Counted from the first letter of the stretch, positions 6,211 to 50,197 are shown. The stretch: 64,000 nucleotides of DNA from Patescibacteria group bacterium UBA6201 (GCA_002422025.1 DISV01000005.1:290948-354947); one strand, 5' to 3'. The notes: generated by a model not told the origin, from the sequence alone. A program made the numbers and translations.

Positions 6211-6347
6211 TTAGTTTCTAGTAGTTAATGTCTGACACTATCAACTAATAACTAATAACTTACTACTGAATAATGTTCTGCTCACGGGCAGACAGGAACC
6301 AATCAAAATGACTGACTCCTGTCCGCCTGCGATTTCTGACCTCGTGG

Positions 6348-7136
6348 TTAATGAGGTTCCTCAATCGCTAGCTTAATGAAGAACAGTGTGAGAATAGCAA
6401 AAATGAAAGCCTGAATAAAGCCCACAAAAAGTTCATAAGCGATTAGCGGTACCGGTAGCACGTACGGTGTAGCCAGGAACATGACCACCAACAATAATGT
6501 CTTGCCGGCGAAAATATTTCCAAATAGACGGAAAGAGAAAGAGATTAAACGAGCCATCTCGGAAAGGAGTTCAATAATACCAATTACGAACGCCAGGGGT
6601 GACCTGAAGTTTATAAACTTCCCAACATATTTAAAGAAGCCAAGAATAGTTACTCCAGCCAATTCAATTGCAAAGAAGGCAACCAAAGCAAAAGCAATCG
6701 TGATGTTTAGATCTGTGGCTGGCGGGTGAAAGAAAGGAACTAATTTGGAAACCACTTCTTCATGAGATTCAACATCCTTATATATACCAATAGAATCAAC
6801 TCCAGGCAGAAGACCAACCCAATTCATCAGAAGAATGAAGATGAAGATGGTCATCACGAGCGGAAAGAAACGACGTGCTAAGCTGGTACTTTCTAACACC
6901 TCAGACATATAGTCAAAAACCGAGACAATCAAGAGTTCCACCACGTTTTGTAACTTTCCTGGAACTAAAGACAATCTAGTATTAACAACTAGAGCTACTA
7001 AGAGCAATATAGCCATCGTTAGCCAAACCGTCAAAAGTGTATTGGTAACTGGTATACCAAAAAGCGTGGCCACGGAATCCGGGGCTAGGTGTATAGATAA
7101 ACCTTCAGCAGCATGAGCTGTTTGGGCAAATAACAT
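6348..7136 (-). CDS. atpB: Fo ATP synthase a subunit
   Basis: Polytopic protein with the conserved C-terminal RLFGN motif (SFRLFGNIFAG). Confidence 0.85.
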   Translation of the reverse strand: MLFAQTAHAAEGLSIHLAPDSVATLFGIPVTNTLLTVWLTMAILLLVALVVNTRLSLVPGKLQNVVELLIVSVFDYMSEVLESTSLARRFFPLVMTIFIFILLMNWVGLLPGVDSIGIYKDVESHEEVVSKLVPFFHPPATDLNITIAFALVAFFAIELAGVTILGFFKYVGKFINFRSPLAFVIGIIELLSEMARLISFSFRLFGNIFAGKTLLLVVMFLATPYVLPVPLIAYELFVGFIQAFIFAILTLFFIKLAIEEPH

Positions 7137-7301
7137 AACAAATGCAAGCTATCTTAGCATAAATGCCACTATCTTTAAAGCAGACGTCTTGGGAAAAATA
7201 AGGACTTTAGATAGGAAAATAAGTCAGCTTTAAATTAAAATACTCTTGGACAAGATATCCAAGAGTATTTTAAAAGTGTTTATTTAGTGGATTAGTGTTA
7301 A

Positions 7302-8015
7302 CTATGCTACCGAATTTGGTGAAAAGGAAACCGAAGCTTCAGGCGTAGTCGCTGGAAGGGTTTTAACTTCCTTATAAAGTAGATACACGTACACTACAGC
7401 TATCGGAGTTAGTAATACTGTGAGTGCAGTTACCAATGCCTCAGTAACTACATGATTAGGCAAAAAGACAGAAATTGTAGAAATAAGCATACTAAGTAGC
7501 AAGACGAATACACTCATCGCTATTAGACGACCAAATATTGCCCACCATTTGCCACGTGTATATTCTCGACTTTTTTTCAAGGACTCCACAATTGCTCCAT
7601 TCTCAAGCACTAAAACAAAAGTGGCAAATGCGAACCAGACAGAAAGAATGATGCCAGGAATAATAAGTAGCAAGAAACCAACCATCATTATAATGGACAT
7701 TAGTAGTGATAGACCGATGTATCGCCAAAAATATGGCCATGCACGTCTATAGGCCTCCTTGGCCGTTATAGAATTATCATTAATAGCTAGAATCAGAGCG
7801 ACTGTCATCAAGACACTAAGGACAACATAAATAAACATCAACACTACATAGACTATAGACTCAGAAGTAATCATTATTCCCGTTGCCTTATTTGGGGCAA
7901 AAAGAGCAGTGAGAAATGAAACTACAATTGGTATAAACAAAATAGATAGGAACAAGAAAAAATTAGCACTCACTATCGCTAATGAATTCTTGAATAGTTG
8001 AATTGGTCCAGGCAT
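7302..8015 (-). CDS. Hypothetical polytopic membrane protein upstream of the atp operon
   Basis: 237-aa ORF with ~6 hydrophobic helices. It is not AtpI-like in size. Confidence 0.5.
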   Translation of the reverse strand: MPGPIQLFKNSLAIVSANFFLFLSILFIPIVVSFLTALFAPNKATGIMITSESIVYVVLMFIYVVLSVLMTVALILAINDNSITAKEAYRRAWPYFWRYIGLSLLMSIIMMVGFLLLIIPGIILSVWFAFATFVLVLENGAIVESLKKSREYTRGKWWAIFGRLIAMSVFVLLLSMLISTISVFLPNHVVTEALVTALTVLLTPIAVVYVYLLYKEVKTLPATTPEASVSFSPNSVA

Positions 8016-8090
8016 ATTTAATGCTTAATTAATATACTTGAATTATAGCACTTTAGGGGTGCGCGGTAGGAGTTTTGCACAGGGATGGAT

Positions 8091-8115
8091 TGGATGACCC
8101 GAGAGGATTCGGTCA
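8091..8115 (-). repeat. Degenerate copy of the tRNA-Ala 3' end (T-arm/acceptor fragment ending TCCA)
   Basis: The 16-mer gacccgagaggattcg (8096-8111) is a perfect direct repeat of 8273-8288 inside tRNA-Ala. The reverse complement reads ...GACCGAATCCTCTCGGGTCATCCA. Confidence 0.6.
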
Positions 8116-8270
8116 CAACTCTGGTGTTTACACACCAGGTCGCGACCTCGCCTCGCTTGCCTGCGGCATCGCTCCGGCCTTCGAATCCTCACGCAAGCAA
8201 AGCAGTTTGCTTGCTTCGGGTCCACATGAAAATCAAAAGCCACACTTGCGTGTGGCTAAGATTTTCTATG

Positions 8271-8343
8271 TGGACCCGAGAGGATTCGAACCCCCCGCCT
8301 CCTCAGTGCAAATGAGGCGCTCTACCAAATGAGCTACGGGCCC
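8271..8343 (-). tRNA. tRNA-Ala (anticodon UGC)
   Basis: The reverse complement reads GGGCCCGTAGCTCATTTGGTAGAGCGCCTCATTTGCACTGAGGAGGCGGGGGGTTCGAATCCTCTCGGGTCCA. It has a 7-bp acceptor stem with the G3:U70 alanine identity pair, D-stem GCTC/GAGC, an anticodon loop TTTGCAC (anticodon TGC), T-loop TTCGAAT and discriminator A. No CCA is encoded. Confidence 0.8.
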
Positions 8344-8351: not shown

Positions 8352-8389
8352 ACTGAACGAACTAGCTAGGCCACCCTGCTCAAGGTGTA

Positions 8390-8474
8390 GGGCTCATTTG
8401 CACTACGTGCAAATGATTCGAAAGCCTACTAGGCTTTCTCACCCCCACCACATAAGCTACGGGCCCAGTTAAGT
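8390..8474 (-). pseudogene. Decayed tRNA-Ala-derived fragments: inverted anticodon-arm hairpin and a second copy of the 5' end
   Basis: ctcatttgcac, the tRNA anticodon-arm sequence, occurs on the opposite strand inside a hairpin tcatttgcac-tac-gtgcaaatga (8395-8416). agctacgggcccagttaagt is repeated at 8455-8474. No complete cloverleaf can be folded. Confidence 0.45.
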
Positions 8475-8556
8475 GTTGGGCACTTTTATCAGCATTTACT
8501 CTGGTATAAAAGTTCAGATATATTACTGATTTATGCACCTAAAGTCAAAGGGTAAG

Positions 8557-9102
8557 CTACGGCATCAACCAAGGTGTGCTACTACTAAGTGACAAAACGC
8601 CTCCAATACTTAAAGTATTGTCTGGTAGCCAAAATGAAGATTTGGCGACAGCGTTGTCTGACATAACAAGATTTTCTTTGTTCTTAACTGGATAAACCAT
8701 GTCCTCACTAACCACATATATAAAGTGGTAGCAAGAATCGCTATCATCCATGCTAGCGCAATAATGAACCATTGTGCCATCGAGTGAGACCGAAGAGGAA
8801 ACCACCTCTCGATGAAAACCAAATTCAAGATCCTCTTCGGAGCCTTTGGCACTAATTATTCGCTGCCTTTCTCCATTTGTCACAAATAAACCTTCATCGG
8901 TAACAATTGTTTCTACAGCACCATATGCTGAGGCTTGTTGAACTACTCGACCTTCAGACTGACTATTGTCTTCCTCAAAATACTTTGGACTAACGTCATT
9001 TAATTCAAAAGCAATATAGGCAGTAGTGAATCCTATTAAATAAGCTAAACCGATCAATATAGCTTTAGTATGATCAGTTACAGGAACTGTCTTTTTCTTC
9101 AT
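8557..9102 (-). CDS. Hypothetical membrane-anchored/secreted protein
   Basis: 181-aa ORF with an N-terminal hydrophobic anchor (AILIGLAYLIGFTTAYIAF); no recognisable domain. Confidence 0.45.
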   Translation of the reverse strand: MKKKTVPVTDHTKAILIGLAYLIGFTTAYIAFELNDVSPKYFEEDNSQSEGRVVQQASAYGAVETIVTDEGLFVTNGERQRIISAKGSEEDLEFGFHREVVSSSVSLDGTMVHYCASMDDSDSCYHFIYVVSEDMVYPVKNKENLVMSDNAVAKSSFWLPDNTLSIGGVLSLSSSTPWLMP

Positions 9103-9155
9103 TATTATGATTATGCATTTGAACCAGCAAATAGTCTATATAAAACTGTGCATAA

Positions 9156-10118
9156 TTAGCTCGCACTAGCTACTAAATGCAAAACGAAATCATCGTAAGA
9201 GTGACCAACAGCAGATAATGCTTTAGGTAGGAGCGATTCATTAGTCAAGCCTGGTAATGTGTTGGTTTCCAAAAAATAAATACCATTCGGACTCACAATA
9301 AAATCACTGCGAGAGTACTGTGACAAACCTAAATGATGATGAGCTTTTAAAGCGGCATCGCTTAAGGCATCTTTTTCCTCACGAGAAAAACGACCCGGGC
9401 AAATTTCTTCGGTTGCTCCATTATATTTAACTTCATAATCAAAAAATCCGTTTGCAGGTGGTGGCACAATCTCAATAACTGGTAGACTATAGTGTTTTTG
9501 ACCTCGGAGGTTTTCCACGATACCAACAGTGGCTTCACGGCCATCGATACATTTTTCTACTAGTACCTCTTCCCTTTCTTTAAGGGCGCGAGTTAATGCA
9601 TTAACTAGCTCATGAATACCATGGGCCTTGTAGGTTGCAATGGAAGAACCGCCGTTTACTGGTTTAACAAAATATGTTGGCCCAAAGAGTGACTCGATAC
9701 CAGCAGCTACCCGACGTACATCGGTACTGGACCGAGTGACACGTAAGTGTGGTGCTGTCTTCACGCCAGCAGAGCGGAGAATGTCCTTGGTAAGAATTTT
9801 GTTCATAGTAAGTGCAGAAGGATAAGCACGACTGCCGGTATAACGTATACCAATGCGATCCAAAATCCTCTGCACAGTTCCGTCCTCACCATACGCTCCA
9901 TGCAATGCCACAAAGGCGACGTCTGATGTAGAAAGTGCTGCTGCCGGCTCTTTAGCAAAACCATGAACCATCCATTCACCCTGTTTGTTAATAATAACGT
10001 CCACAGTAGAAAGACCTTGCCGAGCCAAAGCAGACAACACCTCAGCTCCCGTCTTCATCGAGACGTCGTACTCCTCACTGGTTCCACCGCGCAAAACTGC
10101 AACTCGCAGATTTTTCAT
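9156..10118 (-). CDS. ddl: D-alanine--D-alanine ligase
   Basis: ATP-grasp Ddl signature regions (VFVALHGAYGEDGTVQ..., FVKPVNGGSS, ETNTLPGLT). Confidence 0.9.
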   Translation of the reverse strand: MKNLRVAVLRGGTSEEYDVSMKTGAEVLSALARQGLSTVDVIINKQGEWMVHGFAKEPAAALSTSDVAFVALHGAYGEDGTVQRILDRIGIRYTGSRAYPSALTMNKILTKDILRSAGVKTAPHLRVTRSSTDVRRVAAGIESLFGPTYFVKPVNGGSSIATYKAHGIHELVNALTRALKEREEVLVEKCIDGREATVGIVENLRGQKHYSLPVIEIVPPPANGFFDYEVKYNGATEEICPGRFSREEKDALSDAALKAHHHLGLSQYSRSDFIVSPNGIYFLETNTLPGLTNESLLPKALSAVGHSYDDFVLHLVASAS

Positions 10119-10122
10119 CCCG

Positions 10123-10341
10123 TTAGAAATTATTGATGGCTTTTAAACTTCCCGTAACGCGACCTTGAACTATCTCAGAGCAATACATATGGTATGTCTC
10201 TTCATAATTTCTAACGGGATTCATACCCTCATTATATAACAACTCTTTAGATAACTCTCTAGAAAAGAGAACGGTTTCTTCTTTGTCTATGGAAACCGAT
10301 GGAGAAACGATGAGCTTCTGCATTAGCCAGCAAAATTGCAT
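10123..10341 (-). pseudogene. Possible frameshifted remnant of the uvrC C-terminal (HhH) region
   Basis: 72-aa ORF in a different frame, overlapping the uvrC 3' end. It has weak resemblance to the UvrC HhH segment (SVSIDKEETVLFSRELSKELLY vs consensus S.LE.I.G.G.KR...LLK.F). Confidence 0.3.
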
Positions 10342-42615: not shown

Positions 42616-44700
42616 ATGGAGTTATTTTCATATCTTGGATTACACACCGCATACCTCTTTGTGTTTTCTGTTAGTTTAGGTTTAGGTATTGGTACATCTG
42701 TATTGAGTCATAGTCTTTTTTTACTTGCTGCTAAAGACAAAAAAGTGTCACGCGATGAGTTTAAATTACTAAACCTATCACGCAAAGTGAGTTGGGTGGC
42801 AATCCTTATGTATGGTTTCAGCGGTATCGGTCTTTTTACCCTTGCCTACGAATCTATGATTGAGCTTGGAATATTCTATGCCAGCATGACGGTCGCTGTA
42901 ATTCTAGTCACAAATGAAGTGCTGTTTTCGTTTTGGCATTTGCCACGTATACAAAACACCAAAAATGGTGTGGCTGTAGTTGATGCTTTTGTTTTAGTAA
43001 GCGGTGCTGTCTCTGCCGTGTCATGGATATTTTTAATGTTCCACCATGTCATTTATCGAACCGATATTGGATACTTTCCATTCATGACCCTATACACAAT
43101 AGCGGTCATTTTGGCACTACTACTCACTTGGTTTATATTCAGAAATTCCGTACACAAACATGACGGCCTTATACTCAAACGCTCTTTATTGACTGCAGTT
43201 TTGCTAACAATTATTTTTATTGGCGCTTGTTATTCCGATATTAATCTAATAACCAAAACGATTAAGGTTGAGGAAGTGGTGCCTCCAATATCAAGTGATG
43301 CAACATACACTATTGATGATGTGGCCCTCCATAACAATTCTGAGGATTGTTGGCTAATTATAGATAAGAAAGTATTCAATGCCACCGAAGCGTCACGCCT
43401 ACATCCAGCCATGTTCAACTGCGGTGAGGATGTGAGTGAGAACTATCATATAAATCATGGCGAGACTATTCGTGACAAGATGATGAAGTTTTATATAGGA
43501 GAACTTAGTGACGGGAAAGGTATCACAAATGTCGATGTACCATTTACAAAAAACCTTACCCTGGAACCATATCGTGAACTATATGTAGATGAAGGATCCT
43601 GGAATCCACATAACCTGATGTTAGTGGTGGAAAAGGACGCTGAGAAGCTTCTAGCAATTGACGGAACTACACACGAAGTAATTGGACGTGTCCACAATGT
43701 TGGTTTTCAGCCACATACATCAGTCTTTTCTTCAGATGCGAAGTTTATGTACATCATCTCGCGCGATGGTTGGCTAACAAAAATAAGCCTTGAAACACTT
43801 GAACCAATTAAATCAGTGTTGGTAGGTGAGAATTCTCGCGGTACTGCGCTGACCGATAATGACAAATACATTGCGATTGGCAATTACGCACCGGGAAATC
43901 TAGTGATTCTCGATACTGATACGATGGAAATCCTCAAGACTATTGCACTTAATGTCACAATAGATGGTAAAGAGATTGAGTCGCGAGCAGGTGCAGTAGT
44001 CGAAGATGGTAACAGAATTATCGTAGCCTTAAAGGATGCAAATAGCGTATGGGCCATTGATACTGACCAGTCGGATTTTCCAGTCACTGATAAATTTGAA
44101 AACATTGGCGAGAATGTACCTGCACTACATGACGCCTTCCTTACTCCCAATGGAGAATACTACATAGTCGCATCCCAAGGTTCAAAGACTGCCTGGGTAC
44201 TTGATTTAACAACAATGAAACCAATCGCTGAGATAGAGACGGGAGAAACACCTCACACCGGCCCTGGAGCTGCCTGGGGCGACTACATCTACGTTCCAGC
44301 TCTCGGAGAAGGTTTAATAACAGTTATTGATACTAAAACCTGGAAGCCGGCGAAGTACATAAAAACAGGTGGGCCAGGACTATTTGTGCGCAGTTACAGC
44401 AAAGATCCATCGTATCCATATGTCTGGGCCGATACTGCCTTTGGCGATTATAAAGATGAAATATATGTGATTGATGCAAGGATTAACGAAATCGTTGAAA
44501 CAATTGTCCCAGTCGAAGGCGAAAGCTCATGGCACCCTGAATTTACCTACGATGGTAAGTCTGTCTACATCGTTTCTCAAACAGCCAACGAAGTAGAAGT
44601 ATACGATGCCTACACCTTCGAAATAGTTAAAAGAATTGAAGCTAATACTCCATCAGCAATATCTAATGTTGGTCTTCGAATCGAGGAGCCTGGACTCTAA
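42616..44700 (+). CDS. Membrane protein with N-terminal polytopic domain, cytochrome b5-like heme-binding domain and C-terminal YVTN-type beta-propeller
   Basis: About 6 TM helices (1-230). A cyt b5-like core (DVALHNNSEDCWLIIDKKVFNATEASRLHPAMFNCGEDVSENYHINHGE). Repeated beta-propeller blades of cd1-nitrite-reductase/YVTN type (KYIAIGNYAPGNLVILDTDTMEILKTI...). Confidence 0.6.
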   Translation: MELFSYLGLHTAYLFVFSVSLGLGIGTSVLSHSLFLLAAKDKKVSRDEFKLLNLSRKVSWVAILMYGFSGIGLFTLAYESMIELGIFYASMTVAVILVTNEVLFSFWHLPRIQNTKNGVAVVDAFVLVSGAVSAVSWIFLMFHHVIYRTDIGYFPFMTLYTIAVILALLLTWFIFRNSVHKHDGLILKRSLLTAVLLTIIFIGACYSDINLITKTIKVEEVVPPISSDATYTIDDVALHNNSEDCWLIIDKKVFNATEASRLHPAMFNCGEDVSENYHINHGETIRDKMMKFYIGELSDGKGITNVDVPFTKNLTLEPYRELYVDEGSWNPHNLMLVVEKDAEKLLAIDGTTHEVIGRVHNVGFQPHTSVFSSDAKFMYIISRDGWLTKISLETLEPIKSVLVGENSRGTALTDNDKYIAIGNYAPGNLVILDTDTMEILKTIALNVTIDGKEIESRAGAVVEDGNRIIVALKDANSVWAIDTDQSDFPVTDKFENIGENVPALHDAFLTPNGEYYIVASQGSKTAWVLDLTTMKPIAEIETGETPHTGPGAAWGDYIYVPALGEGLITVIDTKTWKPAKYIKTGGPGLFVRSYSKDPSYPYVWADTAFGDYKDEIYVIDARINEIVETIVPVEGESSWHPEFTYDGKSVYIVSQTANEVEVYDAYTFEIVKRIEANTPSAISNVGLRIEEPGL

Positions 44701-44710
44701 TTAAATATAT

Positions 44711-45253
44711 TTAAGCTGTTTTAGTTGAAAGAATCCTTACCCCACTAAGGACAAAGGCGATTTCAATGGCACCCACAAGAACCAAGGTGTAAGCAATATC
44801 ACCAAGTAGCATATTCCTCAAAAATGGTAGGCCAAGCTCATAAGCATAGAGGAGTCCAAAAATAGATTTCTCATACCATGGAGAGAACAACCAGACTGCA
44901 GCATTGGTAAACAAAAAGAAGACTAGCGAACTGGCAACAACAGTGACCCCAACCGAAGAGAAGGAGTTATACTTTCGACAAACCCAACTAAGGAAACCAA
45001 TTAGGATAAACGAGCCGTAGACTGAAAGCATTATTCTCCAATCGTAAAACCCTATAAGCAAATCAGACAGTAGGAGGGCCACAAGCGGAAGAATAATTGA
45101 CCACCTTCTTCCGAGATACAAACTACCCACAAACGCTAAGGCGGCAATCGGTGTTGCGTTCGGAGCGTGTGGCATAAGCCTTATCATTATCCCGAAAGAA
45201 ATTAGTGCGCACGCTATTAAAATAATCTGATTTCTATTCAAATTCATAATCAA
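44711..45253 (-). CDS. Small polytopic membrane protein, ECF-transporter S-component-like (by context possibly cobalamin-related)
   Basis: 180 aa, ~5-6 TM. The N-terminal motif LMPHAPNATPIAALAFVGSLYLG resembles S-component signatures. It is adjacent to B12-related genes. The functional assignment is speculative. Confidence 0.4.
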   Translation of the reverse strand: MIMNLNRNQIILIACALISFGIMIRLMPHAPNATPIAALAFVGSLYLGRRWSIILPLVALLLSDLLIGFYDWRIMLSVYGSFILIGFLSWVCRKYNSFSSVGVTVVASSLVFFLFTNAAVWLFSPWYEKSIFGLLYAYELGLPFLRNMLLGDIAYTLVLVGAIEIAFVLSGVRILSTKTA

Positions 45254-45681
45254 AATTGTGATTTTTCATAGCGCCATTCTACAGAGTCTCTGTCTTTAAG
45301 CTCTAGTTTATCGGCTCCGACTTGTGGCATAGTGTCGTTAACAAAATACTGCCAATATTTGTCCTCCACTCCATTTACCTTTCCATTTATACCCTCAACC
45401 AATATTCCAAGCCCTGGATACTCTTTGGTGATTAAGAGAAACTCTGGGTCTTCTTGATTTAGTGCCTCTAGAGCATCATAGACAGTATCACCCACTGCTA
45501 CAGTTACTGATTTATTTGTATAAACACCTTCAACACTTAGGGAAATGTTGATGACTTCTTGAACATCTTCAGTCGGTACATTTTGTAGATTGGTCTGTCT
45601 GTCTGTATACGCAGACAGACCAAAGATTAATGCCAATACAACAGTACCTAACCCTAATATTTGCAAGACTTTATTATTCAT
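45250..45681 (-). CDS. DUF4430-like exported protein (family frequently linked to cobalamin uptake loci)
   Basis: N-terminal anchor. The conserved pattern is TVYDALEAL...GILVEGINGKVNGVEDKYWQYFVNDTMPQVGADKLELKDRDSVEWRY. The family assignment is from memory. Confidence 0.5.
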   Translation of the reverse strand: MNNKVLQILGLGTVVLALIFGLSAYTDRQTNLQNVPTEDVQEVINISLSVEGVYTNKSVTVAVGDTVYDALEALNQEDPEFLLITKEYPGLGILVEGINGKVNGVEDKYWQYFVNDTMPQVGADKLELKDRDSVEWRYEKSQF

Positions 45682-46226
45682 ACACTTTTTAAATTATCTT
45701 TATACGAAGGCGATAGTTCTCTTATATTCTTCCTGACCGCTACATATCGTGCAAGTACGTATAGAAGACTTGAGAGTCGATTGAGATACGCTAGAGTCTC
45801 GGGCGACACTGCCCTATCTGACAAAGCAGCGATGACTGTACGCTCTGCTCGACGCGACACTGCTCTAGCAAAATCAAATAGTGCTGAGTGTTCTGTCACC
45901 CCTGGTACCACAAAGGAATGAGGGTTTGTTATTTCACTCTCAAAATCTTCAATCGTCTGTTCAAGACTGTCTATATGACTTTGTTCAAGTGTTTCGGTGA
46001 CTCCCGCCAACTCTGCCTGCACAATAAAAAGACTTTCTTGCGCCTTTAGTATCTCATTACTAATTCGTTTGTCTTTTTTAGCAAAACGAGCCCTGCAAAT
46101 ACCGAGTAATGAGTTGAGCTCATCAACCGTACCAAGTGCTTCAAAGACAAGACTATCTTTAGATAAACGCTCTTTAGTCCCAAAGAGTCCTGAAGTGCCA
46201 CCATCCCCTTTACGCGTATATAGCAT
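45678..46226 (-). CDS. ATP:cob(I)alamin adenosyltransferase, PduO type
   Basis: N-terminal LYTRKGDGGTSGLFG (TRTGDxGxT-like motif) and the PduO-type helical bundle. Confidence 0.85.
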   Translation of the reverse strand: MLYTRKGDGGTSGLFGTKERLSKDSLVFEALGTVDELNSLLGICRARFAKKDKRISNEILKAQESLFIVQAELAGVTETLEQSHIDSLEQTIEDFESEITNPHSFVVPGVTEHSALFDFARAVSRRAERTVIAALSDRAVSPETLAYLNRLSSLLYVLARYVAVRKNIRELSPSYKDNLKSV

Positions 46227-46231
46227 AGAAT

Positions 46232-48556
46232 TTACGCAGTAGTTACATCAGAGGGTACCAACATATCAATATCACAAGTACCACCCACACAAGCCAACTC
46301 CTTCTTCTGCTCCGTCTCATCAGTATGCTCATAGGTGACCAACTTTGAGTAGTCGATTGAAGGAAAGCCAGCTAATAGTTCATCATATCGTTTTTTATCA
46401 ATTGTCTCATAAGGAGCCAGACGGTAAACATGATCAAAGCGTGGCAAGAATGATAAACCGCCGATAATACTCCAATTTTTCTGCACCCAATCTACAACAC
46501 TAATCCACTCATTTTCGCCGACTGATATCGTGGCCGATGGATTATGTTCCGTATAGTTAAGCTTTACTGTCTTCCAATATTCTAATTGTTCCAGTGCAGA
46601 AAAATCATCTTTAAAAACAGAATCACTTGGTGCCTCGACTGGAAACTCCAAAACATAAGTACTAGCGCTTTCGAGAGATTGCCCAACTTCAGGGTAGTAT
46701 GGTACGCCTTGGTCCTTCAACATCTTGAAGAGTGAGTCAGTGGCAGAGATTCGGACACGACGGATATAGTATTTTGAGTGACGAGGATGTATACCAGAGG
46801 AACAATTGAAGGTTTGTGACACAGTACCAGACGGTTTAACTGCTGTTACTGATAGTGATTGCTTTATTCCTAGTCGTTTGGCGTACAGAGCGTTTGTCTC
46901 TATTGCCATATCACGCATCGCACGTAAAGTTTCTGGTTCGCGCGCAACGTCACTATCCCACTGACCAGTCACTGAAACACCAAGCAAATGCTCATCTTCA
47001 CAATGCTTCTGCCAGTCTTTCGAGATGTAGTTAAATTTCGTCAAGGAAGATTGATAAGTTCCAAGGAGAGAAGCAAGACGCGCCTTACGCACCAAACTCT
47101 CTTTAGTGTCATCCGCTCGCGCTATAACTTCAGAGAGGTTACAAAATTGTTTTGATTGGAGGATTATCTCTCCACACGGATTCGTACCAATTGGACCCTC
47201 TACTACCCCATCTTCTCCTAGGAAGCCTACCTTCTTAAAATACTTAGCACGACGCTCCGGTAAAGTGTTGGCCAATGCTCCACGGTTAAATATACCTCTC
47301 TCTCCTGACCCACTTTTCATAAGTGCCACCCACTCTTCCATTAATTCCGTATTTGATGGAGTTGTTTCGTATACGGCAGAGTTATTAGCAACTGACCGAT
47401 GTGGTTCTGTTAAATAAAACTGTCCCTTTTTAGCATCACGTAGGTCAGCGTCATCAAGATCAGACAGACTTATCATTGCGGTCCGACGTACTCCTCCTGA
47501 GACCACACACTCACCAATCTTGCAGATAATATCGTGAACATCGAGTGGTCTCAGGCGACGACCTTGTCGTTTCTGTATCTTTTCTTTAGCAAAATCCAGT
47601 AGCGAACGTAGTGGCTCAGGACCAGAGGCTTTGCCACCCATAGTCATCAAGCGGGCACCCGCTGGCCGAATAAGAGAGTAATCAAACTGAATATCCTCTC
47701 CGGCATACCAAGTCTTTAGCCCTAAAGTGAGCGCATCACACCACCCTTCTTTAGAATCTTTAACTCTGTGTGTGGGCTTCACTTTTTTAGTTAGTTTTTT
47801 AATCTGTGGCATCTGCTCAACATTCTGACTCTCAACAGAAAATCCGACACCACACCCTTGCATTGAGAGGTACATAATTTCGGCATAATCTTCAAGTGAA
47901 GCTGGAGCAATAAATGTGCAGTTATATGCACAGGTGTTGCAACGGCGAGCTGGGTCACCAGCAAATTGCATCAGTCTCATAGAAGGCATCACTTCTTGCT
48001 TAAGAATTGCTTCACGAAGTTCAGAATACTCCTCTTGTGAGAGCTTATTGCCAAGATTTTCTCTCATAAATGAAATATAACGATCAACCGTCTCAATCCA
48101 TGTCTCACGTCGATTTTCCTCCTCAATCCATCGTGCGTAGGTCCTCAGATATACGAATTCGCCAAGAGCATTATCTTTAAAATACTTTTTGCTTTTTTCC
48201 GCCAGGACCCGCACATGTTCTGGCACCTCACCTCTTTCCAAGCGTCTCTCTGTTCGCTCCGCTCGGTAGAGGATGTATGATTTGGCAGATTCAAGGAACC
48301 CCAAAAGCATAAGTTCTTTTTCCACCTCATCTTGCACCTCCTCAACAGTGGGAGTAAATGCTGAATTAGTTTTTTTATTTGCCGCCAACTTCTTTTCTAC
48401 TGCATTAGCAACCATCTTTGCTGCTCCATCACTAAATTCTCCAACGGCCTTCATTGCTTTGTTTACAGCAACGATAATTTTGTTTTTATCAAAATCAACG
48501 GACGAACCGTCTCGTTTAATGATGGTAGTTAGCAATGGTGATTTGGTTTTTGGCAT
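46232..48556 (-). CDS. nrdJ: Adenosylcobalamin-dependent (class II) ribonucleotide reductase (start placed at ATG 48556; longest ORF uses TTG 48565)
   Basis: N-terminal ATP-cone-like region (KRDGSSVDFDKNKI) and the RNR active-site motif NPCGEIIL. The large catalytic-domain size (~775 aa) fits monomeric or large class II enzymes. A neighbouring adenosyltransferase supports the B12 dependence. Confidence 0.85.
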   Translation of the reverse strand: MPKTKSPLLTTIIKRDGSSVDFDKNKIIVAVNKAMKAVGEFSDGAAKMVANAVEKKLAANKKTNSAFTPTVEEVQDEVEKELMLLGFLESAKSYILYRAERTERRLERGEVPEHVRVLAEKSKKYFKDNALGEFVYLRTYARWIEEENRRETWIETVDRYISFMRENLGNKLSQEEYSELREAILKQEVMPSMRLMQFAGDPARRCNTCAYNCTFIAPASLEDYAEIMYLSMQGCGVGFSVESQNVEQMPQIKKLTKKVKPTHRVKDSKEGWCDALTLGLKTWYAGEDIQFDYSLIRPAGARLMTMGGKASGPEPLRSLLDFAKEKIQKRQGRRLRPLDVHDIICKIGECVVSGGVRRTAMISLSDLDDADLRDAKKGQFYLTEPHRSVANNSAVYETTPSNTELMEEWVALMKSGSGERGIFNRGALANTLPERRAKYFKKVGFLGEDGVVEGPIGTNPCGEIILQSKQFCNLSEVIARADDTKESLVRKARLASLLGTYQSSLTKFNYISKDWQKHCEDEHLLGVSVTGQWDSDVAREPETLRAMRDMAIETNALYAKRLGIKQSLSVTAVKPSGTVSQTFNCSSGIHPRHSKYYIRRVRISATDSLFKMLKDQGVPYYPEVGQSLESASTYVLEFPVEAPSDSVFKDDFSALEQLEYWKTVKLNYTEHNPSATISVGENEWISVVDWVQKNWSIIGGLSFLPRFDHVYRLAPYETIDKKRYDELLAGFPSIDYSKLVTYEHTDETEQKKELACVGGTCDIDMLVPSDVTTA

Positions 48557-48572
48557 AGTCGGCAAAGATTAC

Positions 48573-48614
48573 ATAGATAATGGTCTATCTATAGTAATAT
48601 AGATAATTATCTAT
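48573..48614. promoter_or_regulatory. Two adjacent palindromic sites sharing the half-site ATAGATA, 17-58 bp upstream of the nrdJ start
   Basis: atagata-atggtc-tatctat (48573-48592) and the perfect 16-bp palindrome atagataattatctat (48599-48614). Confidence 0.35.
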
Positions 48615-48797
48615 GTATAAGAAAATGATGTGGAGAAGAGATACGGACACGAAAGATAGGCCCTGACAAGTACACATTGCCCCACCTAGTTGAAGAGACT
48701 AGTTAAGATAGGGCATTTTTTTCCAAATTGACCTAGTTTATTGCCACACCTGCGTTGGTATTCAACATACATATACGTTATGATAACGACCGCATAC

Positions 48798-48872
48798 GGA
48801 GGGTTCGCATAGTGGATGAGTAGCAAAACATTTTGCTACTCATCCGGTCCCGAGTGAAGCGAGGGATTGTCC
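48798..48872 (+). pseudogene. Decayed tRNA-Ser copy: 18-nt 5' end identical to tRNA-Ser, 28-nt perfect hairpin inserted after the D-loop GG, degenerate T-arm, no 3' acceptor
   Basis: tacggagggttcgcatagtgg (48795-48815) is a perfect direct repeat of 48964-48984. A hairpin atgagtagcaaaa-ca-ttttgctactcat occupies 48816-48843. cgagggattgtcc resembles the tRNA-Ser T-arm cgagggttcaaatcc. Confidence 0.45.
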
Positions 48873-48966
48873 GATGTTTTAGACGAGGACAAAGGTGGAC
48901 TAGTGCTAGGCATTTCTATCACTTAGTTTGTAACTGGACCGAGAAGTCATTAAACTAGGAATTTAC

Positions 48967-49053
48967 GGAGGGTTCGCATAGTGGCCTAGTGCGCCGCCTT
49001 GGAAAGGCGGTATCGGGGAAACTCGATCGAGGGTTCAAATCCCTCACCCTCCG
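48967..49053 (+). tRNA. tRNA-Ser (anticodon GGA), class II with long variable arm
   Basis: GGAGGGT-TC-GCAT-AGTGGCCTA-GTGC-G-CCGCC-TTGGAAA-GGCGG-TATCGGGGAAACTCGATC-GAGGG-TTCAAAT-CCCTC-ACCCTCC-G. It has a 7-bp acceptor stem, a GG in the D-loop, anticodon GGA and T-loop TTCAAAT. No CCA is encoded. Confidence 0.8.
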
Positions 49054-49387
49054 CAGATGAACGAAGTGAGACAAGGTGGGTGAAAGAAACAGTCTGGGTG
49101 AGTAAGTGTTGCACACTTCCACAAGACTCATTGAGATAGTTATGACCAACGGGAATAAATATCCAATGAGTAGACAGCTCCTGTAAGGAGACTGTTTCTT
49201 GGGATTTGAAAAGGTTGCCCGTTGTTTTGGGAATACTTGGACTAATATAACTATAATCTGTATTGAAACTATAAGTTTCAAATCTCTCAACTACTTATAC
49301 ACACCCCACCTTTACACACCTCAAAAAATGTTTCGAGAAGAGTACAATATAGATAGCACGAAGTTATTAACATTAACTTAATGAATT

Positions 49388-49843: not shown

Positions 49844-50197
49844 CTAGTGCTTACACTTCCCTCGCACAGTTAACTCTAAAGATTCGGGAGTAAAACCTGG
49901 AACCTTAATCGATTTCATAATCTCAGCATCCGATACATTAAAGTGGATTACCTTATTGCAATCAGTGCAGATGGCATGATGATGATTTGCTTCTTTATAT
50001 TCATACATCGCCTCGTCTTTATCAAGGTCAAGTTTTTTTATCAAACCATCCGACACAAAGAGTTCTAAGTTCCGATATATGGTAGTCAGGTCAATCTCCG
50101 GAATTTTCTTATGAATTTCAGCCGCAGACAAAGCACAGTGCGCGTCTTTCAGCACTTTAAATATTTTTTCACGCTTTGGACTGTGGCGACGATTCAT
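49844..50197 (-). CDS. Fur-family metalloregulator (Fur/Zur/PerR)
   Basis: Winged-helix N-terminus (REKIFKVLKDAHCALSAAEIHKKI...TIYRNLELF) and a metal site HHHAICTDCNKV...CKH. Confidence 0.85.
   Translation of the reverse strand: MNRRHSPKREKIFKVLKDAHCALSAAEIHKKIPEIDLTTIYRNLELFVSDGLIKKLDLDKDEAMYEYKEANHHHAICTDCNKVIHFNVSDAEIMKSIKVPGFTPESLELTVRGKCKH

Follow-up and report, generated by a model that had tools for sequence, protein, structure and literature searches.

The window analysed here, a 64-kb stretch of the genome of Patescibacteria group bacterium UBA6201 (Paceibacteria), contains four consecutive minus-strand genes (44711-48556) that start with nrdJ, which encodes an adenosylcobalamin-dependent ribonucleotide reductase, and continue with a PduO-type adenosyltransferase, a small DUF4430 protein and a DUF6580 membrane protein; a pair of palindromic boxes lies directly upstream of them (48573-48614). 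We read this arrangement as a vitamin B12 module forming one operon, preceded by the two-box operator of a lineage-specific repressor of the ArsR/SmtB family whose gene most likely lies at another place in the genome, and we place the probability of this reading as a whole at roughly 70%. The gene module is ordinary in kind, and the palindromes are the more interesting part, as they expose a conserved and apparently undescribed ArsR-type reductase regulon, of which the window has the operator but not the gene beside it.

The analysis draws on about 78 kb of annotated genome (the window and about 14 kb of flanks), on 79 species-level Patescibacteria loci centred on nrdJ, on a regulator-centred scan of Joint Genome Institute (JGI) metagenomes that returned 80 loci, 68 of them with sufficient upstream sequence, and on a comparison of 77 distinct operators (89 operator instances). 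A first-pass annotation of the window had already recognized the four genes and the operator-like palindromes, both of which stand; its second gene overlap is doubtful and its 7-6-7 definition of the palindromes is revised, and its interpretation is partly supported.

A two-box operator and its candidate repressor

The pattern ATAGATA-N(0-8)-TATCTAT occurs twice in the 64 kb, both times within 48573-48614, against an expectation of 0.01 occurrences. The palindromes proposed earlier are real and non-random, but their limits shift once the 77 operators are compared: the conserved units are two 16-bp boxes of 6-4-6 form, with starts 26 bp apart in the window and mostly 26-27 bp apart across the set, and the 7-6-7 reading of 48573-48592 takes in four fortuitous bases. 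Box 1 (ATAGATAATTATCTAT; 48599-48614) follows the consensus ATAGAY-N4-RTCTAT, and box 2, which is nearer to nrdJ and 17 nt from its ATG (minus-strand reading ATAGACCATTATCTAT; 48573-48588), follows ATAGAY-N4-ATCWAT, each with zero mismatches. Across the 77 operators, and leaving the degenerate Y, R and W positions aside, half-site bases are conserved at 96% or more in box 1 and at about 84-100% in box 2, while centres and spacers vary in sequence; the spacer measures 10 bp in the window and 10-11 bp in 61 of the 89 operator instances. The half-sites keep their sequence and show no compensatory changes, a pattern that argues for recognition by a protein over an RNA structure. A regulon scan of the window found no further boxes beyond chance.

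The regions upstream of nrdJ in relatives share the same two-box architecture, with box 1 overlapping the start codon of a divergent regulator gene. Between the boxes of the window lies a -10-like hexamer, TACTAT (48591-48596, minus strand), presumed to belong to the nrdJ promoter, and a TAnnnT sequence, mostly TATAAT, is found 2-3 nt past box 1 in 76 of the 77 operators. If this sequence is the -10 element of the reductase promoter, box 1 would cover the spacer between -35 and -10, and box 2 the transcription start.

The divergent gene of the relatives encodes a strong candidate, of the ArsR/SmtB family, for the regulator that the first-pass annotation had left unnamed, although the gene is absent from its usual place in the window. 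In 18 of the nrdJ-centred loci it lies next to nrdJ in divergent orientation, its ATG overlapping box 1 and the box pair sitting in a gap of about 60 bp (60 bp between the two divergent start codons in L086); in L032, the entire operator is present a second time, beside a small gene that is divergent and carries an ArsR signature. The predicted protein is about 120 residues long and rich in cysteine, scores 58-64 bits against the NCBIfam ArsR/SmtB metalloregulator model (cut-off 55) and has a modelled structure of the ArsR/SmtB winged-helix type. Among its invariant positions are a CPxC motif, the cysteine of LVC, a C-terminal AHCFEEC (HCxxxC) and an RPxWV motif. At 90% identity the family splits into at least 798 clusters, which all have generic names, and at 50% identity it collapses to a handful of representatives that stand well apart from other ArsR proteins.

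The association extends beyond class II enzymes. A reductase gene is divergently adjacent to the regulator in 63 of the 68 metagenome loci, nearly always with the boxes in between; 27 of these are nrdD-nrdG pairs of class III (Pfam NRDD, 1e-193), and the other 36 had their best score as nrdJ-like, some of them matching through the ATP-cone alone. The one such locus checked by Pfam (L094, 562-3966) is a class I operon beside the regulator and its boxes. The boxes also precede nrdJ in loci without B12 transport genes in the vicinity (L014, L022). Since the regulator accompanies reductase operons of classes I, II and III, with or without B12 genes, the control looks reductase-centred and not B12-centred, as far as gene neighbourhoods can tell. 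Box quality follows the presence of the regulator gene as well: mismatches are zero in 16 of the 19 loci with an adjacent regulator, against 3-5, or background level, in most loci that lack one. Downstream of the regulator, a NirK-like multicopper oxidase gene is found in about 30 of the loci L087-L166 and a cytochrome-cd1-type gene in L110, which suggests a wider regulon tied to oxygen or nitrogen oxides.

In the mechanism that we propose, one or more dimers of the ArsR-like protein would occupy both boxes and shut the two divergent promoters, that of the reductase operon and that of the regulator's own gene, until the Cys/His site undergoes a change that makes the repressor dissociate. The conserved cysteine and histidine residues would fit a zinc site, an iron-sulfur site or a thiol switch, and the signal would most likely be redox state, oxygen, nitric oxide or a metal.

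Two known types of system invite comparison. With the SmtB/ArsR repressors (smtB-smtA; CzrA, BigR, HlyU) the candidate shares the winged-helix fold and family score, as well as the layout in which a small gene and its target diverge and inverted repeats overlap their promoters (here placed by consensus only). It differs from them in its target, which is a ribonucleotide reductase of any class and not metal or sulfur detoxification, in its cysteine pattern (CPxC, LVC and the C-terminal HCxxxC), in a short terminal helix that replaces the long alpha-5, and in an operator of two 6-4-6 boxes, in the window without the regulator gene beside it. NrdR, in turn, is likewise dedicated to reductases, has two boxes of 16 bp that cover the promoter, and occurs before class I, II and III operons. 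The ArsR-like protein is nonetheless unrelated to it, having no zinc ribbon and ATP-cone, and its boxes differ both in sequence and in their spacer, 10-11 bp here against 15-16 or 25-26 bp for NrdR.

NrdR has been described as a universal, reductase-specific bacterial repressor (PMC12051234, PMC9110341). In a literature search of incomplete coverage we found no paper that ties ArsR-family proteins to the control of nrd genes, and nothing on reductase regulation or on B12-dependent reductases in Patescibacteria. A broader proposal, to which we give even odds, is that Paceibacteria use a dedicated ArsR/SmtB repressor with a Cys/His site and a two-box operator instead of NrdR for reductases of classes I, II and III, often co-transcribed with a NirK-like copper oxidase, so that the signal to which deoxynucleotide supply is tied would be redox state, oxygen, nitric oxide or a metal and not the nucleotide pools; the window would then represent a lineage in which operator and gene have become unlinked. 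If true, a large uncultivated radiation would have a second regulator dedicated to reductases and unrelated to NrdR, which would show that an ArsR scaffold can serve to rebuild such control and would offer a testable handle on how DNA-precursor synthesis is gated in ultra-small symbionts.

Several loci around these subjects deserve mention in their own right. In L094, and also in L095, L097 and L098, an NrdB with an N-terminal ATP-cone is followed by an NrdA without one and then by a PNPOx-like gene. The window itself carries, convergent with the nrdJ operon (42616-44700, plus strand), a gene for a 694-residue membrane protein that combines a cytochrome b5-like domain with a cytochrome-cd1 beta-propeller, the counterpart of which follows the regulator in L110. 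We also considered the boxes as sites of the FNR/CRP type, given their resemblance to TTGAT-N4-ATCAA and a Crp-family gene nearby in L082, and dropped this idea because an ArsR-like gene adjoins the boxes in most loci. A conserved sequence upstream of box 1, TATCCCCAG...TTTCTTATTCAT, which could be taken for a promoter or RNA element, is actually where the coding sequence of the divergent regulator gene begins, on the opposite strand.

The B12 module downstream of the operator

All four genes lie where the first-pass annotation had placed them. The first, nrdJ (46232-48556, minus strand), encodes a monomeric class II reductase of the ribonucleoside-triphosphate reductase (RTPR) type with an N-terminal ATP-cone, as judged from Pfam, NCBIfam and PDB matches. 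Pfam resolves the ATP-cone (5e-19), RNR_Alpha, the reductase barrel and RNR-II_ins_dom, and the best PDB relative is 1L1L, the monomeric RTPR of Lactobacillus leichmannii (2.7e-48). The active-site loop NPCGE occupies residues 459-463 and the C-terminal cysteine pair, CVGGTC, residues 756-761; together with the domains and the 1L1L match, these bear out the earlier claim of a B12-dependent reductase. The nearest assembly is a metagenome-assembled genome of Candidatus Nomurabacteria, with 95% identity in NrdJ. A metagenome copy of the same locus (L002, JGI 3300001592, 6301-8290) has nrdJ called as open reading frames of 251 and 416 residues with the 5' part missing, which reflects either an assembly error or a disrupted allele.

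The second gene (45678-46226, minus strand) encodes a PduO-type ATP:cob(I)alamin adenosyltransferase, whose scores exceed the curated cut-offs of both Pfam (PF01923, 2.3e-46) and NCBIfam (TIGR00636 PduO_Nterm, 150 bits against 108). With nrdJ and pduO both assigned to their families, the genes of a B12-dependent reductase and of the enzyme predicted to make its cofactor stand side by side, as first suggested. The pduO gene overlaps the DUF4430 gene by 4 bp (ATGA) with certainty; the second 4-bp overlap that had been claimed needs a TTG start at 45253, and both the gene caller and the alignment of homologues prefer the ATG at 45247. The four genes probably form a single operon and a module for the capture, import, adenosylation and use of B12.

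The third gene (45250-45681, minus strand) encodes a membrane-anchored DUF4430 protein (PF14478, 4e-15), the counterpart of CbrS, with an N-terminal hydrophobic anchor, read from the sequence, and the remaining domain facing outward. With a profile of 28 orthologues, the hits are the C-terminal (beta) domain of transcobalamin-1 (4KKI, 4.7e-4) and that of intrinsic factor (2PMV/3KQ4, 1.5e-3), which makes the DUF4430 domain a homologue of the beta domain that binds B12 in transcobalamin, haptocorrin and intrinsic factor. We infer that CbrS is itself a DUF4430 protein. In a Ligilactobacillus locus retrieved through the NrdJ search (L082), nrdJ and pduO are followed by a DUF4430 lipoprotein gene, downstream of which the DUF6580 profile finds no CbrT.

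The last gene (44711-45247, minus strand) encodes a six-helix membrane protein of about 20 kDa that has the fold of the S-components of energy-coupling factor (ECF) transporters and is presumed to be a CbrT/BtuM-like B12 permease component. Pfam files it under DUF6580 (PF20221, 5.5e-39), outside any named S-component family, and NCBI labels it a 'putative transport protein'. A search with the profile built from 32 DUF6580 proteins reaches chain A of 6FNP, which is CbrT, the B12-specific S-component of ECF-CbrT (PMC5997447), at an E value of 1.5e-4 over about 75 N-terminal residues alone. The AlphaFold model (mean predicted local distance difference test score, pLDDT, 89.5) has as its top Foldseek match BtuM with cyanocobalamin (probability 1.0, TM 0.61), followed by FolT, RibU, CbiM and ThiT. 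Profile and model together support CbrT as the nearest relative in sequence and BtuM as the nearest in predicted fold. BtuM is a solitary, S-component-like B12 transporter with an essential cobalt-ligating Cys80 (PMC6072759), and the alignment of 32 DUF6580 sequences holds no invariant or near-invariant cysteine, its invariant residues including instead a PHxPN loop motif. Because the essential Cys80 of BtuM has no conserved counterpart, the DUF6580 protein is, on this alignment, not a member of the BtuM family. Transport could be either ECF-dependent, as for CbrT, or solitary, as for BtuM. Both small proteins thus fell in the kinds of family first proposed for them, DUF4430 by its Pfam match and the S-component by its CbrT profile match and BtuM-type fold, though filed under DUF6580. 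Our literature search, again of incomplete coverage, found no mention of DUF6580, for which the module would supply the first functional context, B12 import.

In the proposed pathway, the surface-anchored DUF4430 protein would capture cobalamin outside the cell, the DUF6580 protein would import it, PduO would adenosylate it to adenosylcobalamin for NrdJ, and NrdJ would use this cofactor to reduce ribonucleotides, its ATP-cone presumably providing dATP feedback on activity. No cob/cbi or nrdR genes were seen in the roughly 78 kb annotated.

The arrangement itself is not new: the module is the Patescibacteria version of a published nrdJ-cbrS-cbrT-pduO cluster, and what is new is the lineage. That cluster was predicted by Rodionov et al. 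2009 and is carried by Lactobacillus delbrueckii, for which ECF-CbrT has been characterized (PMC5997447). Both versions place a reductase, PduO, a small extracytoplasmic DUF4430 protein and an S-component-type permease of about 180 residues and six helices side by side. They differ in gene order, in the ATP-cone of the window's NrdJ, in the DUF4430 protein, which is anchored by a transmembrane segment here and is not a lipoprotein, and in the permease, which belongs to the uncharacterized DUF6580 and is remote from CbrT, as the short profile match indicates. BtuM (PMC6072759) is the best structural match to the DUF6580 model, and the surroundings of the cluster show no ECF module genes; its Cys80, in loop 3, has no counterpart in DUF6580, and it is found mainly in Proteobacteria.

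Across the nrdJ-centred set, pduO, DUF4430 and DUF6580 genes lie downstream of nrdJ in about 25 of the 79 loci, with inversions or insertions in some. In L006, a 613-residue transcobalamin-alpha-like protein is encoded between nrdJ and pduO (8364-10205), and in two Adlerbacteria-type relatives a cobalamin riboswitch follows the DUF6580 gene (L028, 10417-10536, and L018, 11850-11987; Rfam 34.5 and 32.7 bits), preceding a gene for a protein of 711-725 residues with transcobalamin-alpha and/or DUF4430 matches. By their sequence matches, these additional neighbours independently tie the cluster to B12 capture, and the bacterial proteins found here appear related to both halves of the eukaryotic B12 carriers.

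The missing regulator gene and competing explanations

Several points weigh against the reading of a B12 operon under an ArsR-type repressor. A tblastn search finds no regulator gene in the window, the roughly 14 kb of annotated flanks show none either, and the operator may have no cognate protein in this genome. The promoter is placed by consensus only, in AT-rich DNA, and the effector is a guess from the Cys/His residues and the neighbouring copper-oxidase and cd1-type genes. In the module, NrdJ matches the RTPR model TIGR02505 (E 1.4e-91) at 308 bits, under the trusted cut-off of 340, and its RNR-II insertion domain is marginal (25.9 against 27). Finally, no genes for the EcfA/A'/T energizing module occur in the annotated sequence or near any of the clusters compared.

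What remains of the regulator gene beside the boxes is a 17-codon remnant (MYKKMMWRRDTDTKDRP and a stop codon; 48613-48666, plus strand), whose ATG overlaps box 1 as it does in intact loci. It matches the 5' ends of the intact genes of L004 and L086 at 32 of 48 and 31 of 48 nt, respectively, against a shuffle maximum of 27. The same remnant, next to the same tRNA-Ser gene, occurs in L068, and L086 and L168, which are closer to the window by DUF6580 identity, keep the regulator gene. By this comparison, the regulator gene has been deleted from its usual position next to tRNA-Ser in this genome.

The deletion, present in both the window and L068, is also the starting point for the alternative that survives best, namely that the regulator has been lost from the genome altogether, the boxes being an undecayed fossil and the embedded promoter driving nrdJ constitutively. 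The sequence that flanks box 2 on the nrdJ side would agree with such a loss, as in both genomes it departs from ATAWC, a consensus that could represent the -10 element of the regulator gene itself on the other strand. Decay of boxes does occur in other regulator-less relatives, where L012-L015 and L072 have 3-5 mismatches, against a background of at least 6, whereas the window and L068 have zero. The boxes are perfect in these two genomes even as the surrounding non-coding DNA has diverged: only 1 of 24 half-site bases differs between them, against 6 of 18 centre and spacer bases. We therefore regard the relic explanation as unlikely, if deserving of more attention than any other alternative, and, because both boxes are still perfect, a regulator encoded elsewhere in the genome seems most likely to us.

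Much further behind, the boxes could be divergent NrdR boxes, bound by an NrdR encoded elsewhere. Two 16-bp partial palindromes before a reductase gene are what NrdR would lead one to expect, and NrdR does occur among Patescibacteria, with nrdR in L065 and a canonical NrdR box in L054. The NrdR-box consensus (acaCwAtATaTwGtgt), however, has no match at three or fewer mismatches in the 64-kb window, nrdR is absent from the window and from 78 of the 79 related loci, and the boxes co-occur with the ArsR-type gene instead. Furthermore, NrdR needs box spacers of 14-17 or 24-27 bp (PMC12051234), a range that the 10-11 bp found here falls outside, and we consider this explanation very improbable.

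We give equally little credence to binding by a Fur-family protein whose gene (49844-50197, minus strand) is found 1.2 kb upstream of the operon. Box 1 holds an AT-rich, Fur-like core, GATAATTATC, and a Fur gene is nearby in both the window and L068, but the four central nucleotides of box 1 are unconserved, reading GTTT in L068 and showing flat position frequencies, and at all other box-carrying loci there is no Fur gene near nrdJ; nothing evidently links the gene to the boxes.

Least probable of all is an RNA-level element, in which the palindromes would form hairpins or a riboswitch within the leader of nrdJ: box 2 probably does lie within the 5' untranslated region and relatives do use cobalamin riboswitches nearby, but the candidate stems amount to 6 AU-rich pairs, the half-sites are conserved as sequence, and Rfam is blank here, RF00174 giving no match in the nrdJ leader at the gathering or the permissive threshold while detecting the riboswitches of L018 and L028. 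Consensus scan, spacing and Rfam searches at two thresholds thus agree with the first-pass annotation that the palindromes are neither NrdR boxes nor a B12 riboswitch.

Other control elements are found upstream of nrdJ within the group. L054 carries the canonical NrdR box CACAATATATTGTG upstream of nrdJ, and in L065 nrdR lies directly upstream of it. Several members of a set formed by L025, L026, L030 and a clade of 72-74% identity share an A/T-rich, AATAAATTATTAGC-like motif upstream of nrdJ, which may be a third operator type.

The tRNA-Ser(GGA) gene that neighbours the remnant (48967-49054) has its 5' end represented twice, in an exact 21-nt direct repeat at 48795-48815 and 48964-48984. The repeats flank 169 bp that the closest relative, L068, lacks and that contain a perfect hairpin with a 15-bp stem (48814-48845), as if a small insertion had duplicated the 5' end of the tRNA.

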